Source: an uncultured Clostridia bacterium (GTDB lineage Bacteria; Bacillota; Clostridia; TANB77; CAG-508). From it: a DNA stretch of 64,000 nucleotides. Shown here piece by piece: positions 27,492 to 31,043 of this stretch. The number at the start of each line of letters is the position of its first letter. Position 1 is the stretch's first letter. The notes under the pieces are model-generated. The model was not told the DNA's origin. It made no database searches and saw nothing but the letters and a program-made list of their open reading frames with translations. The stretch is from contig CAMVJW010000005.1 in assembly GCA_947167965.1 (NCBI GenBank), positions 56,635 through 120,634 on the forward strand, written 5' to 3'. The position numbers were made by a program, and so were the translations under genes.

Positions 27492-27728
27492 TTAATCTTG
27501 CTCAACTTCATTAAACATTGGGTCACTAAAGAAATCTATTAGTGTAATATTAAAACCTTCACAAATATGAAGTAAAGTATCAAGCTTTATTAATTCTGTA
27601 TTACCATTCATAAATGAACAAATAGTAGAACGAGGAATACCTGAAGCCTTAAATAATTTCCATATGGTCATATGATTTTTTTCTAAATAATATTTAATTC
27701 TTTGTCGAACAGCATCAGACAATGTCAT
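27492..27728 (-). CDS. XRE-family helix-turn-helix transcriptional regulator (78 aa)
   Basis: Has 'RIKYYLEKNHMTIWKLFKASGIPRSTICSFMNG', an HTH_XRE pattern. Confidence 0.75.
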   Translation of the reverse strand: MTLSDAVRQRIKYYLEKNHMTIWKLFKASGIPRSTICSFMNGNTELIKLDTLLHICEGFNITLIDFFSDPMFNEVEQD

Positions 27729-27896
27729 AACTAATCACCTCTATTATTTATGCGTTTATAAAAAAAGTATAACAAGAAAAATGTCGAAAATAGTCTAATT
27801 AAATATACTTCGAAACACTTTTTTGTACACTAAACATCAGATGTTTAATAATTAGTATTGACAATAAAGAATTATCAATTCTGTAAATCAAGAAAA

Positions 27897-27921
27897 AAAC
27901 AGCTATTTTGTATTTAGCTGT
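27897..27921 (-). terminator. Intrinsic terminator downstream of the 116-aa XRE gene
   Basis: aacagcta-(ttttgtatt)-tagctgtt, followed by a T run on the minus strand. Confidence 0.6.
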
Positions 27922-27922
27922 T

Positions 27923-28273
27923 TTAAAGTTTAGAATTCTTAATTAAATATATTAAATCTTTTAAAAGATTCAAACCATTTATTAAATCTTCCTCAGAAAA
28001 ATATTCTAGATATTTTTTTGTATCAGAAATAATTGAATCATCTAAACCGTATATAATGTAATCTGCTGAATGACCACTTAAATCTCTTAAAAGTTTAATA
28101 CTTCTATATGTTAAATTGCCTTTACCTTTTTCAACTAAGCCTAGAAATTGACTTGAGATTTTTAGTTTGCTAGCAAGATCAGTTTTATTAAGGTGAAGTT
28201 CATTTTCTCTAATGTTTTTTATTCGTAATCCTCTAAGTATTTGTTGTTCCTTATCTTCATTATTAATAACCAT
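27923..28273 (-). CDS. XRE-family (SinR-like) HTH regulator with a C-terminal helical extension
   Basis: Has 'LRIKNIRENELHLNKTDLASKLKISSQFLGLVEKGKGN'. It is divergent from the Spo0A-like regulator gene. Confidence 0.75.
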   Translation of the reverse strand: MVINNEDKEQQILRGLRIKNIRENELHLNKTDLASKLKISSQFLGLVEKGKGNLTYRSIKLLRDLSGHSADYIIYGLDDSIISDTKKYLEYFSEEDLINGLNLLKDLIYLIKNSKL

Positions 28274-28495
28274 AAATTTTTCCTTCCAATATTACACATT
28301 TTATCCTTAAATCTAAAAATAGGATTGTAATGATTTTGCTTACTTTTAAGGTTTAAGTATTTATAAATTTTAAAATAAAATACACTAAAAATAATTAGAT
28401 ATTAAAAATGTGTACTATAGTTTTTAATGGGATTTTATGGTATATTTTGAAATATAAAGAAGGAATTTAATGTTTTTTGAAAGGGTGGGGATAAA

Positions 28496-29281
28496 ATGAA
28501 AAGTAAAAAGATGAATATTTTAGTTATTGAAGATGATGTAGAGGCATGTGAATACTTGAAAAAATGTGCAGAACAAAGAACTGATATAAGTATTGTTGGA
28601 ATAACAGATTCTGATAATGAAGCTTTAAAGTATTGTAAAGCAAAACACCCTGATGGAATAATTCTAGATATAGAACTTAATAATGGAGTATCAGGAAATA
28701 CTGATGCTTTATATTTTTTGAAAGAATTAAAATCTATGAATTTAAATTATGAACCAATTATAATAGTTACAACACATATAAATTCAAAAAAGACATATGA
28801 TATTTTACATAGAAATGGAGTTGATTTAATTTTATATAAAGACCACCCAAAATATTCTCCTAACCATGTGTTTAATAATTTTATTATTTTTCAAAAAGAA
28901 GATGATTATAGTAAAAGAATGAATAATTATCTGGTTGGAAATAATGATGAAAAGGTTTCTAAATTAATAGATGCGGAATTAGATTTAATTGGAATAAGTT
29001 CTAAGTTAAAAGGAAGGGAATATATATTTGATGGTATAAAGTATTTAATTGAAAATGAAAAACCGCAAATAAGTGTTATACAATACCTTACAAATAAATA
29101 TAAAAAATCTGCAACAACAATTACAAATGGAATACAGAATTCAATTATTCATGCATGGAGAATTAGTCCAATAGAGGATTTAGAAAAATATTATACTGCA
29201 AGAATTAATTACGAAACTGGAATTCCAACACCTATGGAGTTTTTGTATTATTATGTGAATAAAATTAAAAAAGAGATTTAA
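28496..29281 (+). CDS. Response regulator with receiver domain and divergent Spo0A-type C-terminal DNA-binding domain
   Basis: The receiver reads 'ILVIEDD..', 'GIILDIEL' (phospho-Asp) and 'IIVTTH'. The C-terminus aligns by eye to Spo0A_C: 'IGISSKLKGREYIFDGI' (compare IGVPAHIKGYLYLREAI), 'KSATTITNGIQNSIIHAW' (compare TTASRVERAIRHAIEVAW) and 'IPTPMEFLY' (compare KPTNSEFIA). Confidence 0.75.
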   Translation: MKSKKMNILVIEDDVEACEYLKKCAEQRTDISIVGITDSDNEALKYCKAKHPDGIILDIELNNGVSGNTDALYFLKELKSMNLNYEPIIIVTTHINSKKTYDILHRNGVDLILYKDHPKYSPNHVFNNFIIFQKEDDYSKRMNNYLVGNNDEKVSKLIDAELDLIGISSKLKGREYIFDGIKYLIENEKPQISVIQYLTNKYKKSATTITNGIQNSIIHAWRISPIEDLEKYYTARINYETGIPTPMEFLYYYVNKIKKEI

Positions 29282-29300
29282 TAATAAATAAAAATTAATA

Positions 29301-29336
29301 AAAGCTGAACGTCTAACCAAATAAACGTTCAGCTTT
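29301..29336 (+). terminator. Terminator-like hairpin after the Spo0A-like gene
   Basis: aaagctgaacgt-(12-nt loop)-acgttcagcttt is a 12-bp perfect stem, but the T run is short. Confidence 0.55.
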
Positions 29337-29451
29337 TACTAGTTTATACTACATTTTATTATTTTGTTATACCGCTTTATTTATAACGTTTGATGATATT
29401 TTTTATTTAACAATATGAGAAAGAACGTTAGAAATAAAGGTGGTGAAAAGA

Positions 29452-29502
29452 ATGAGCTGGTGGGAAGAACTATTAAGATGGATTGGAAAATGGTCAGGAT
29501 AA
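29452..29502 (+). CDS. Unannotated 16-aa Trp-rich micro-ORF (MSWWEELLRWIGKWSG)
   Basis: The ATG is preceded by aaaggtggtg at 6-nt spacing and the stop is TAA. A strong bidirectional terminator follows immediately. The ORF lies between the response-regulator and sensor-kinase genes and is too short for the ORF track. Confidence 0.5.
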   Translation: MSWWEELLRWIGKWSG

Positions 29503-29511
29503 AATACTAAC

Positions 29512-29570
29512 TGTATAAGCTAAAAAATAAGAAGCATATTTAAATTGCTTCTTATTTTTTAGCTTATACA
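29512..29570. terminator. Perfect 25-bp inverted repeat (bidirectional terminator)
   Basis: tgtataagctaaaaaataagaagca-(tatttaaat)-tgcttcttattttttagcttataca. The inner stem aagaagca/tgcttctt is flanked by an A6 run and a T6 run. Confidence 0.8.
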
Positions 29571-29645
29571 AAAGAAATAAAAAGTATTTTAATTAGGTTT
29601 TCTTTTTGAAAATACTTTGTTATAATAGAAAAAAAGAGGTAAAAT

Positions 29646-31043
29646 ATGAATTTAGATAATATAAATACCAAAATATATATTTTGAAAACTTTTATTGCAA
29701 GCATATTTACTTTATTGATTTATTTTAAGATATTAAATATAAAAGTAAAAAAAGTAGAACAAATAATAATGATAGGATATGTAGCTATTATATCTATAAT
29801 ATGTTTTTTTATTAAATATGGAAGTAATTCATATATCGGAACTATTTTTTTGATTTTTTTGCTAAGTTTAATTACTGCAAATACTTTTAAGAAAAAAATC
29901 GGAAGTACAGTTGTTTTTCTAATAATTTCATATGGTATAAATTATATATTCTTTTTTATTTCAATGGTAACAGTATATATTTTGAATAAAGTAATATTAA
30001 TTCGAAGTGATCTAATTAACATGATAATTATGGGTGAAATAGAATTAATAATCTTTTTATTTTTTACAAAAATAAAAAGATTGAAAAATGGATTTAGTTT
30101 TATATCAAACAAGTTTATATATACAGAACTATTTGATTTAATGATATTGAATGGCAGTCTTATAATTATATTTTGTTCTTTAGTATTTTCAATTAATAAT
30201 GTGATTGCTTCAGGAAATATTTTTATATGTTTCATTATATTTTCATTTATTATAATTGAAATAATTAGCAAATCTATACAACTTTATTATAAGCAAAAAT
30301 TATTAATTCAAGAAGTAAATAAAAGCAAAATTGATTTGAAAAATAAGCAAGAAGAAATACAAAAATTAGAATCTGAAAACTTAAATTCAAACAAAAAAAT
30401 TCATTCATTGGTACATAAACAAAAAGCACTAGAATATAAGGTAGACAAATTATTAAAAAATGAACAAAATGATGCAAATAATGAAATAAAAAAAGACCTA
30501 GAAAAAATATCAAATGATTTATTTCAAAACAATAATACTGTTGAACTTAACAAAACAGGTATTAGAGAAATAGATGATATTTTAGAATATATGCAATATG
30601 AATGTCAGAAAAATAATATTGAATTTAATTTATTAATAAATGGAAATATATTTCAAATGGTTAATAACTTTATATCTAAAAAAGAATTAGAAATATTGCT
30701 TGCAGATCATATTAAAGATGCTATTATTGCAATAAACCACTCAAATAATATTAATAGAAGTATACTGGTAAAGATAGGATATTTTGAAGATTGCTATAGT
30801 ATTTATATATATGATTCTGGAATAGAATTCTCAGAAGATATTATAGAAAAACTTGGAAAAGTTCCTGTAACAACTTATAAAGAAGAAGGTGGAAGCGGAA
30901 TAGGGTTTATGAACACTTTTGAAATTTTGAATAAAACAAAAGGGAGTCTTATTATTAAAAAGATTGGGCAACCATGTGCAGACAATTATACCAAAATTAT
31001 AATAATTAAGTTTGATGGAAAAAATGAATTTAAATATATATAA
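29646..31043 (+). CDS. Polytopic (6-7 TM) sensor histidine kinase, AgrC/HPK10-like
   Basis: The N-terminal ~215 aa form 6-7 hydrophobic helices, followed by a coiled-coil linker. A candidate H-box is 'IHSLVHKQKALEY'. The GHKL ATPase has an atypical N-box 'LLADHIKDAIIA', G1 'IYDSGIEF' and G2 'GGSGIGFMNTFEI'. Confidence 0.75.
   Translation: MNLDNINTKIYILKTFIASIFTLLIYFKILNIKVKKVEQIIMIGYVAIISIICFFIKYGSNSYIGTIFLIFLLSLITANTFKKKIGSTVVFLIISYGINYIFFFISMVTVYILNKVILIRSDLINMIIMGEIELIIFLFFTKIKRLKNGFSFISNKFIYTELFDLMILNGSLIIIFCSLVFSINNVIASGNIFICFIIFSFIIIEIISKSIQLYYKQKLLIQEVNKSKIDLKNKQEEIQKLESENLNSNKKIHSLVHKQKALEYKVDKLLKNEQNDANNEIKKDLEKISNDLFQNNNTVELNKTGIREIDDILEYMQYECQKNNIEFNLLINGNIFQMVNNFISKKELEILLADHIKDAIIAINHSNNINRSILVKIGYFEDCYSIYIYDSGIEFSEDIIEKLGKVPVTTYKEEGGSGIGFMNTFEILNKTKGSLIIKKIGQPCADNYTKIIIIKFDGKNEFKYI

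Follow-up and report, generated by a model that had tools for sequence, protein, structure and literature searches.

The peptide quorum-sensing paradigms of the Firmicutes (agr, com/blp, comQXPA and RRNPP) all, to our knowledge, need a leader together with a processing or export enzyme. ComCDE, BlpRH and PlnABCD combine a double-glycine leader and a C39 ABC exporter with HPK10 kinases and LytTR regulators. A sharply bounded cassette of peptide and sensor defines the agr specificity groups and the comQXP and comCD pherotypes, and balanced polymorphism is a hallmark of these three systems, in which selection favors telling cells apart. Here we analyze a locus in a 64,000-nt stretch of DNA (the window) from an uncultured Clostridia bacterium (assembly GCA_947167965.1, contig CAMVJW010000005.1). 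We think it likely that this locus encodes a three-gene system of a leaderless peptide pheromone, a receptor kinase and a Spo0A-paralog regulator, often joined by an XRE protein. Full-text literature searches found no description of such a system.

The arrangement recurs far beyond chance, to judge from the loci compared. Homology searches with the regulator and the kinase returned 1564 and 2484 hits, respectively, mostly metagenomic and unnamed; the names that NCBI gives to family members are by domain only. A profile search of 1.84 billion cluster representatives yielded 1101 kinase clusters at E ≤ 1e-10, of which 673 reach E ≤ 1e-30; most are full-length. The loci sampled (designated by L numbers) comprise 7 from species-representative metagenome-assembled genomes labeled "uncultured Clostridia/Clostridium" and 80 from metagenomes. 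In the window, every element lies where an initial annotation, made from the letters alone, had placed it, and in the same gene order. The micro open reading frame (micro-ORF), its Shine-Dalgarno site and its tryptophan (Trp) pattern are present in all 54 of 54 related loci that carry the kinase, and the micro-ORF is found in 67 loci overall, including contigs cut before the kinase. The annotation had proposed an unusual peptide-signaling module and a comparison of its synteny; this conservation, the coexistence of the regulator with a genuine Spo0A in one genome (L121) and the co-variation of peptide and sensor all support the proposal.

The micro-ORF appears to encode a short, leaderless amphipathic peptide. 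Its approximately 33 distinct products are 14–18 residues long, contain 23% Trp and share the consensus M-[SD]-W-[WY]-[DE]-[AE]-[FL]-x-x-W-[IVL]-x-[KRH]-W-x(1-3), anchored on a near-invariant W-x3-W. For most of them the helical hydrophobic moment is above that of nearly every shuffled version of the sequence. Many carry a net charge of 0 or below (-2 in several), and the C-terminus is often cationic. Among these ~33 peptides we found no signal peptide, no double-glycine site and no conserved Cys/Ser ring position. The gene has its own ribosome-binding site, AAAGGTGGTG, and its own terminator, a 25-bp hairpin, as first read; (A)AAGGTGGTG stands 6–8 nt before the ATG in all loci of the low-G+C (guanine plus cytosine) clade, and relatives carry equivalent hairpins directly 3′ of the micro-ORF. 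Neither an AgrB gene nor an ABC gene lies within ~10 kb of the module in the window, which bears out the remark that no processing or export gene is adjacent. At one locus, L118, the micro-ORF (MSLYEWFLWWLGKWA) and kinase occur in an orphan arrangement with no adjacent regulator. Since the micro-ORF accompanies even this orphan kinase, the peptide-kinase pair looks like the tightest unit of the module.

Peptide and membrane sensor behave as a matched pair that appears to be under diversifying selection. After dereplication we compared 86 near-isogenic pairs of loci, whose regulators are ≥98% and kinase cytoplasmic regions ≥97% identical. In the 26 pairs that share a peptide, the transmembrane (TM) sensors are 99–100% identical, whereas in the 60 pairs with different peptides they are 26–60% identical. 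DNA identity is ≥99% up to the start codon of the micro-ORF, 43–70% through the micro-ORF, its terminator and the first ~210 kinase codons, and back to 97–100% at the TM7/linker boundary, giving a variable cassette of ~790 bp. Between same-species loci with different peptides, the flanking DNA, the regulator and the XRE gene are 99–100% identical. One species has at least five peptide alleles (MSWYDALLRWIGRWM; MRYWFNAFWRWISHWAG; MRYWFEAFCRWISHWAG; MSWDDFWRWISKWF; MKNWINAFWKWVSFWI), each seen in several independent metagenomes. The global correlation of peptide with sensor identity across all loci is weak (Spearman 0.22) because sensor identity saturates near 35–45% once peptides differ; it is the near-isogenic pairs that are informative. 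Farther downstream, a separate feature appears in the same-species loci L051, L053, L078, L063 and L085: mean pairwise DNA identity is ~0.6 from ~700 bp past the kinase (L051 ~6758 onward), reflecting either a second strain-variable segment or an indel offset.

The kinase joins a membrane-embedded sensor to a two-component transmitter and, by its profile matches, belongs to a family to which Pfam assigns neither a sensor nor a HisKA domain. An AlphaFold model made from 26 homologs (mean pLDDT 74) has seven TM helices (residues 8-30, 36-59, 62-81, 85-116, 122-141, 161-183 and 186 onward), where six or seven had been predicted, followed by a long helix that runs from TM7 into the DHp hairpin and by an alpha/beta ATP-binding CA domain. 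The HATPase_c profile that had been expected to match scores below its cutoff, but Foldseek aligns the model with the DHp-CA parts of CpxA, DesK, KinB, the AgrC cytoplasmic domain and LOV kinases. The DHp hairpin carries a conserved His and the GHKL domain has N, G1 and G2 boxes, as in two-component kinases; the H-box KIHSLVHKQKALEY, N-box LLADHIKDAIIAIN, G1 box YDSGIEF and G2 box GGSGIGFMNTF contain invariant alignment columns. H253, not H257, aligns with the conserved His of distant homologs, IIHKDNKLIPALEY, and is the likely phospho-acceptor. The N-box is indeed atypical: Asp replaces the Mg-binding Asn in the window, while this position is D or N within the family and N in distant homologs. 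Mean identity among the kinases is 38% in the sensor and 66% in the cytoplasmic part.

The description of this kinase as AgrC-like holds for its architecture and not for its ancestry. Like AgrC, it has a polytopic sensor of 6–7 TM helices that is hypervariable and matched to the peptide allele, but it lacks the PF14501 (HATPase_c_5) signature of HPK10 GHKL domains and any profile similarity to real AgrC. We therefore reject membership of the AgrC/HPK10 family: PF14501 gives no match even at E = 1, although it reaches 51.7 bits on the L103 AgrC; an hhalign comparison with that AgrC returns a probability of 0.4; and the H-box departs from the HPK10 pattern F-[RK]-H-D-[YF].

The regulator appears to be a Spo0A paralog, not genuine Spo0A. 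It passes the Pfam gathering thresholds of both Response_reg (43.5 bits, cutoff 30.2) and Spo0A_C (PF08769, the output domain named in the annotation; 47.9 bits, cutoff 25), and its profile matches the Spo0A DNA-binding-domain structures 1LQ1 and 1FC3 at E ~1e-5. Against the Spo0A equivalog model TIGR02875 it reaches 68.4 bits where the cutoff is 200, which leaves it outside the equivalog. Residues E12, D13, D58, T92, T93 and K115 of the receiver are invariant in 23 sequences and make up the expected pocket of acidic pair, Asp, Thr and Lys. The Pfam score and a comparison with the genuine Spo0A of L121 agree on a Spo0A_C domain whose recognition helix has diverged, as had been suspected. In the window this helix is TTITNGIQNSIIHAW, with T-N-G-I-Q-N invariant within its own family; the family helix TTITNGIQN(A/S)IIHAW replaces the SRVERAIRHAIEVAW of genuine Spo0A, which the genuine Spo0A of L121 carries. 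Given this difference, the Spo0A binding site cannot be assumed for the regulator. The window regulator is 36% identical to the L121 paralog and 19% identical to the L121 genuine Spo0A, and the 64-kb window holds neither spoIVB, the usual neighbor of a genuine spo0A, nor a second Spo0A_C gene. Paralogs of spo0A have been noted in some Clostridiales (Galperin et al., bioRxiv 10.1101/2022.02.25.481979), in passages that assign them no function.

The pairing of regulator and kinase extends to distant lineages of higher G+C content. A search of representatives and a third homology search reached kinase-family members in seven lineages of 35–50% G+C, complete genomes among them. In each of the seven, a Spo0A_C regulator gene directly precedes that of the kinase, and the adjacency thus persists down to 28–36% identity. 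In L121 (GCA_942492735.1, a complete genome of 4.2 Mb) the kinase is 28% identical to that of the window over its full length, and the pair adjoins the spoIIIA operon, spoIVB and genuine Spo0A. Six of the seven lineages have an aromatic ORF of 13–15 codons, with a strong GGAGG Shine-Dalgarno site, in the gap between regulator and kinase and on the opposite strand; the predicted peptides are MWDLWAAIRYILGI, MSWLEWLLFWWSQ, MAWFLDFIKKYFG, MSHVLNLLKQWFNF, MWSRVWERFLWFLSI and MNFWEKFWSYIFY. Because these lineages keep both the pair and an aromatic micro-ORF, the triad seems old and widespread, and the same-strand arrangement of the window would be a feature of the low-G+C clade. In L126, a gene for a C39-peptidase ABC transporter (L126:1-1548, minus strand) is oriented divergently to the regulator gene; no other exporter was seen near a member of the family.

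Each of the three genes has promoter or terminator elements of its own, so that regulator, micro-ORF and kinase look like three transcription units (Table 1); the promoter functions are ones we infer from the elements themselves. Those of the regulator promoter recur in the XRE-regulator intergenic regions of diverse loci, which conserve a TGTGTAC-type palindrome, plausibly the XRE operator, and TATGGTATAT, plausibly an extended -10. A TATAAT-type element lies just 5′ of the kinase gene in L001-L007. The core of the putative micro-ORF promoter aligns gap-free in 20 diverse loci: a T-tract/CTATCA element is followed by AAATACCGCT, which lies near -35 and matches TTGACA poorly, and by an extended -10 TGnTATTTT with invariant TGnTAT..T. 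Farther upstream, the unit TTTT[CGT]N[CT]CA repeats with a period of 10–11 bp and occurs 18 times in 22 loci against 1.2 expected, and its reverse complement TG(G/T)CGAAAAA resembles the 0A box TGNCGAA. This layout matches an activator-dependent promoter bound by tandem Spo0A-type domains and would close an autoinduction loop.

Strains and lineages vary around this promoter. Among strains of one species (L051, L053, L054, L068, L078, L085) the 10-bp T-tract repeat (TTTTTCGCCA / TTTTTCATCA / TTTTTTTCTAT) has 2 or 3 copies, and the micro-ORF starts 132 or 142 nt past the regulator stop codon. Two perfect TTCGACA boxes (the reversed 0A box TGTCGAA), 11 bp apart, sit between the -35 and -10 of the promoter at approximately L052:3340-3365 and L104:2125-2150, in these two lineages only. 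An inverted repeat also spans the -35 to -10 region (window 29368-29404; alignment columns 34-42 and 52-60). Its pairing is 75% against 68.6% in shuffles (1 of 500) and 29–50% when the arms are slid, and its substitutions are G-U-compatible with some compensatory changes, a modest covariation. The repeat may act as an operator, or it may form an RNA hairpin with a U-run behind it. If such a hairpin is taken for a terminator or attenuator, the invariant positions instead fit an extended -10 promoter.

Table 1. Positions of the module's features in the window and, where an L number precedes, in related loci
Feature	Position	Strand	Remarks
XRE78	27492-27728	-	small HTH_26 regulator; Pfam HTH_26 34.1 bits
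XRE116	27923-28273	-	accessory regulator; HTH_3 20.2 bits, just under cutoff 23
Putative regulator promoter	28408-28446	+	conserved ATGTGTACTATAG around -35; extended -10 TATGGTATATT
Response regulator, 261 residues	28496-29281	+	receiver and Spo0A_C-type DNA-binding domain; altered recognition helix
Codon of phospho-acceptor D58	28667-28669	+	
Regulator terminator hairpin	29300-29337	+	-21.1 kcal/mol, z = -8.8; also in the consensus scan, there on the minus strand
Putative micro-ORF promoter	29345-29404	+	T-tract repeats (weak in window); TATACCGCT at 29368-29376, about -35; extended -10 TGATGATATTTTTT at 29391-29404
Shine-Dalgarno site AAAGGTGGTG of micro-ORF	29436-29445	+	6 nt before ATG in window
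Micro-ORF encoding MSWWEELLRWIGKWSG, 16 residues	ATG 29452 to stop 29502	+	leaderless, amphipathic, Trp-rich; proposed pheromone
Micro-ORF terminator hairpin	29513-29569	+	perfect 25-bp stem; -33.9 kcal/mol, z = -11.1
Putative kinase promoter and Shine-Dalgarno site	29616-29639	+	extended -10 TTTGTTATAAT (TGnTATAAT); AAAGAGG
Kinase	29646-31043	+	HATPase_c 21.6 bits, under cutoff 26.4; no NCBIfam hit
Kinase sensor, residues 1-210	29646-30275	+	seven TM helices, very short outer loops; hypervariable, peptide-matched
Kinase transmitter, residues 211-465	30276-31043	+	coiled-coil linker, DHp, CA domain
Codon of H253	30402-30404	+	likely phospho-acceptor
Micro-ORF sites of distant lineages	L121:4763-5001, L122:4788-5001, L124:3847-4000, L126:2790-3000, L127:2830-3000, L128:2813-3000	-	
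Genuine Spo0A of L121	L121:6708-7496	-	canonical recognition helix; ~250 bp from the paralog-kinase pair

One of the two XRE genes is a frequent partner of the module, and the other appears to be a mere neighbor. The annotation had counted both as members. XRE78 is limited to the window and the near-identical contigs L113 and L114, whereas homologs of XRE116 (49–76% identity) adjoin the regulator in ~50 of 86 loci, though not in all clades. The XRE116 family comprises proteins of 116–123 residues with an N-terminal helix-turn-helix (HTH) and a helical C-terminal part, transcribed divergently from the response regulator; in L115 the homolog is located between regulator and micro-ORF. No adjacent XRE gene is present in L002, L005, L058, L099, L105-L112 and L118, all of which have peptide and kinase. 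The label "SinR-like" did not survive: XRE116 matches the structures of the 434 repressor and other XRE proteins weakly, the similarity is to a generic XRE HTH, and none specific to SinR was detected. In one species, five pherotypes share an XRE116 that is 100% identical and is therefore not the specificity partner of the peptide; what role it has in the system is presumptive.

These features suggest a circuit in which a private peptide signal is sensed within the membrane. The micro-ORF would give rise to a short mRNA of its own and, from it, to a leaderless, amphipathic peptide of 14–18 residues that is rich in Trp. This peptide would leave the cell by an unspecified route and partition into the membrane interface. 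There the seven-helix sensor of the cognate kinase would recognize it inside the membrane, and a sensor with almost no extracellular loops fits such recognition. The kinase would then autophosphorylate, probably on H253, and pass the phosphate to D58 of the adjacent regulator, whose changed recognition helix would direct it to promoters of its own, probably that of the peptide gene, for autoinduction, and those of a further regulon. Alternative peptide/sensor alleles among strains of one species would keep the signal private to a subgroup. Our starting points are the observed gene anatomy, the conservation of the triad and of its catalytic and phospho-acceptor residues, the paralog status of the regulator and the co-segregation of peptide and sensor alleles; from these we infer secretion, direct binding, the sign of signaling, phosphotransfer and the regulator's binding sites. 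For quorum sensing in the full sense, with release and density-dependent action from outside, the pherotypes within species offer indirect support.

At one chromosomal site, two different quorum-sensing cassettes appear to alternate. A clade with regulators ~64% identical to that of the window (L036, L045, L049, L097, L103, L107) shares the sortase-XRE-regulator synteny and has, after the regulator, a canonical agrB (PF04647) and a 39-residue agrD instead of the micro-ORF and seven-TM kinase. In L103 (4581-7510) a convergent agrC (PF14501) and agrA (LytTR) follow agrB-agrD; agrC is found in L036 too, and the remaining contigs stop before that point. Intergenic repeats were seen as well: palindromic GGGACAGTCCC-type elements in the regulator-agrB spacers of L036, L045 and L103, and, in L122, GC-rich repeats of ~140 bp arrayed in tandem upstream of the regulator (L122:3210-4000). 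Both look like REP or MITE-like intergenic elements.

Several points weigh against a dedicated pheromone system. Export is the weakest step: no exporter, AgrB or C39 transporter occurs at the locus or is conserved nearby in relatives, and a general transporter, lysis or spontaneous membrane translocation of the Trp-rich amphipathic peptide are possible routes. The co-variation speaks for a specific relation between peptide and sensor and is silent on the side of the membrane and on activation versus inhibition. The regulator seems not always to be paired with this kinase, given the clade next to agrBDCA, and the 7-nt gap between regulator and kinase in L123 holds no micro-ORF. With Asp for Asn in its N-box, the window kinase is assumed to be active. 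All of the evidence is comparative and comes from uncultured, metagenome-assembled genomes.

The main rival, which we consider unlikely, keeps the peptide in the cell that makes it. Inserted into the inner leaflet, it would tune its own kinase in a feedback loop with no cell-to-cell step, as the small membrane proteins MgrB and SafA modulate PhoQ in cis. A membrane-seeking amphipathic peptide without leader or exporter and a sensor almost wholly embedded in the membrane suit this account, and co-variation is equally expected of a cis partner. Yet a modulator of this kind gives no reason for at least five sharply bounded alleles at one locus within a species, and the peptide gene has its own activator-type promoter and terminator and is not co-translated with the kinase. 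Another proposal, to which we assign a rather low probability, is that the peptide is a leaderless antimicrobial or cytolysin, of the phenol-soluble modulin or short Trp-rich bacteriocin type, that the kinase and regulator sense for immunity or production. Being Trp-rich, amphipathic and often cationic at the C-terminus, it resembles membrane-active peptides; plantaricin A and nisin are both antimicrobials and inducers, and the transporter gene beside the L126 regulator would be at home in such a locus. Against this stand the length of only 14–18 residues, a net charge that is often 0 or negative and the lack of a conserved immunity or transporter gene at the locus, and the proposal overlaps with a pheromone rather than excluding it.

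The remaining accounts fit poorly. A SinI-like anti-repressor that binds the helical C-terminal part of XRE116 would echo Spo0A-SinI-SinR of Bacillus subtilis, where Spo0A~P induces sinI, and in most loci a small XRE protein with a helical tail is indeed divergent from a Spo0A-like regulator. We reject this pairing and hold it very improbable: XRE116 does not change across five pherotypes whose peptides differ at most positions, whole clades with peptide and kinase lack an adjacent XRE gene, and XRE116 has no detected likeness to SinR in particular. We give equally little credence to a micro-ORF that is not translated, its conservation being that of a small RNA or of a promoter/terminator region and its variability that of a recombination hot spot. 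The short transcription unit, its very strong terminator and the upstream inverted repeat with some compensatory changes would suit an RNA. However, nucleotides are only 43–70% identical between pherotypes, yet every allele keeps an ATG 6–8 nt after AAAGGTGGTG, an open frame of 14–18 codons and a fixed placement of Trp/aromatic, acidic and basic residues; in distant lineages a similar peptide is encoded on the opposite strand, behind a different Shine-Dalgarno site; and Rfam gives no match. Last, the regulator could be genuine Spo0A that lies by chance next to an unrelated kinase, the one outcome that the annotation had said would undo its claim. Length and domain order match Spo0A, and the window contains a germination protease gene, from which the lineage is or was a spore former. 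The score of 68 against 200 bits, the replacement of a DNA-reading helix that is invariant in Spo0A, the identity of 19% to genuine Spo0A against 36% to the L121 paralog and a kinase adjacency conserved over wide distances contradict this and make it barely credible. A pheromone with its own receptor kinase and Spo0A-paralog regulator is the reading that we prefer.

The module sits in what appears to be the chromosome of an uncultured gut Clostridium-like organism. The window has ~25% G+C, and housekeeping genes flank the module: dprA, yraN, rsmA and a sortase gene upstream, and lexA, mltG/yceG and an NFACT protein gene downstream. A phage or mobile origin was considered and rejected, as the surroundings are chromosomal housekeeping genes and the C-terminal domain of the regulator had no match in viral contigs; none of the viral contigs searched carries the regulator. 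At gathering thresholds, Rfam identified only tRNAs in the window and no known RNA family. The sortase gene (26649-27422) is a recurrent neighbor in two arrangements, either upstream of the XRE gene or directly past the kinase (L036, L037, L097, L103, L107; L118-L120), and the window also encodes a large SpaA/thioester-domain surface protein (56272-59388). What follows the kinase differs by lineage: lexA in that of the window, a gene for a 191-residue membrane protein in two others and a radical-SAM gene in one more. The radical-SAM gene (~310 codons; Radical_SAM and Radical_SAM_C), on the minus strand 3′ of the kinase, is confined to one clade (L005, L058, L115-L117) and may reflect simple synteny or encode a peptide-modifying enzyme.

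Other features of the window lie apart from the module. The germination protease gene gpr (Peptidase_A25; 16266-17205, plus strand) appears split into ORFs of 219 and 107 codons. The split is due either to an assembly error or to a frameshift or pseudogene, which would hint that sporulation is decaying. A comM/yifB-type Mg-chelatase-like gene (22836-24378, plus strand) is likewise called as two overlapping ORFs, one with the ChlI/Lon_C part and one with the Mg_chelatase part, possibly a second frameshift. Five tRNA genes cluster on the minus strand at 12155-12602. A single tRNA (36954-37040, plus strand) overlaps the start of an ORF called at 36918, and this BrkB-like gene probably starts later than called.

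Taken at its widest, our proposal is of an ancient, Clostridia-wide class of cell-to-cell signaling. Its pheromones, of 13–18 residues, would have no leader, processing enzyme or dedicated exporter, would be read within the membrane by a seven-TM kinase and would act through a Spo0A paralog, and abundant human-gut species would be split into private pherotypes. We advance this joint claim tentatively and place it just on the doubtful side. If true, the module adds a signaling system with a Spo0A-type output and without leader, processing or export part, whose Trp-rich amphipathic peptide may pass through membranes, or move from one to another, unaided. It would be represented by hundreds of kinase clusters, mostly from uncultured human-gut Clostridia, and would supply a candidate function for the Spo0A paralogs noted in Clostridiales genomes. 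Strain-level pherotypes in gut commensals bear on kin discrimination, strain engraftment and competition. The ligands would be linear peptides of 14–18 residues that can be purchased, which makes the peptide-receptor pair directly testable. More generally, a key signaling component can be a micro-ORF below the usual limits of gene calling.

Among known systems, the agr locus offers the closest parallel in layout. Both place a small peptide gene beside a polytopic receptor kinase, both have a hypervariable peptide and sensor cassette between conserved flanks with groups within species, and the module, like agr, has a layout that suggests an autoinduction circuit. Unlike agr, the module has no AgrB, and its peptide has neither a propeptide nor a Cys/Ser for a thiolactone ring; its output domain is Spo0A_C instead of LytTR, and its genes form three separate transcription units. 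The window contains no AgrB, and real agrBD are recognizable in relatives. ComCDE, BlpRH and PlnABCD resemble it in using a linear, probably unmodified amphipathic helical peptide with a multi-TM kinase and pherotype polymorphism. In contrast to ComC, BlpC and PlnA, the micro-ORF of 14–18 codons is too short for a leader of ~18–24 residues and has no double-glycine site, and a C39 exporter is absent from the window and not conserved in relatives, with the single exception of the one nearby in L126.

Other systems match the module in part. ComQXPA of Bacillus likewise combines a polymorphic cassette of pheromone and receptor with a signal that hinges on a Trp residue and a kinase with many TM helices; ComX, however, needs the prenyltransferase ComQ and a propeptide, and ComA is of the NarL type, whereas no ComQ-like gene was seen in the window or the flanks of the examined loci. 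Phenol-soluble modulins and the SIP/LCP and SHP-type signals of streptococci share a leaderless, short, hydrophobic or amphipathic product from a gene under quorum-sensing control. The modulins differ in being effectors rather than kinase ligands and in being exported by Pmt, and SIP, SHP and XIP are read after import by cytoplasmic Rgg/RRNPP receptors, whereas the partner that co-varies with the module's peptide is a membrane kinase. No tetratricopeptide-repeat receptor of the RRNPP/Rgg kind is adjacent, and the neighboring XRE proteins, of 78 and 116 residues, have the HTH only. The regulator is like Spo0A in its receiver and Spo0A_C architecture and its overall length, and the repeats upstream of the micro-ORF resemble reversed 0A boxes, TGNCGAA. 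Unlike Spo0A with its orphan kinases, it is a paralog whose dedicated kinase is encoded next to it, and in L121 it occurs alongside true Spo0A. A peptide pheromone coupled to a two-component system with pherotypes is known already; what is new is every component and the absence of a gene for maturation or export.

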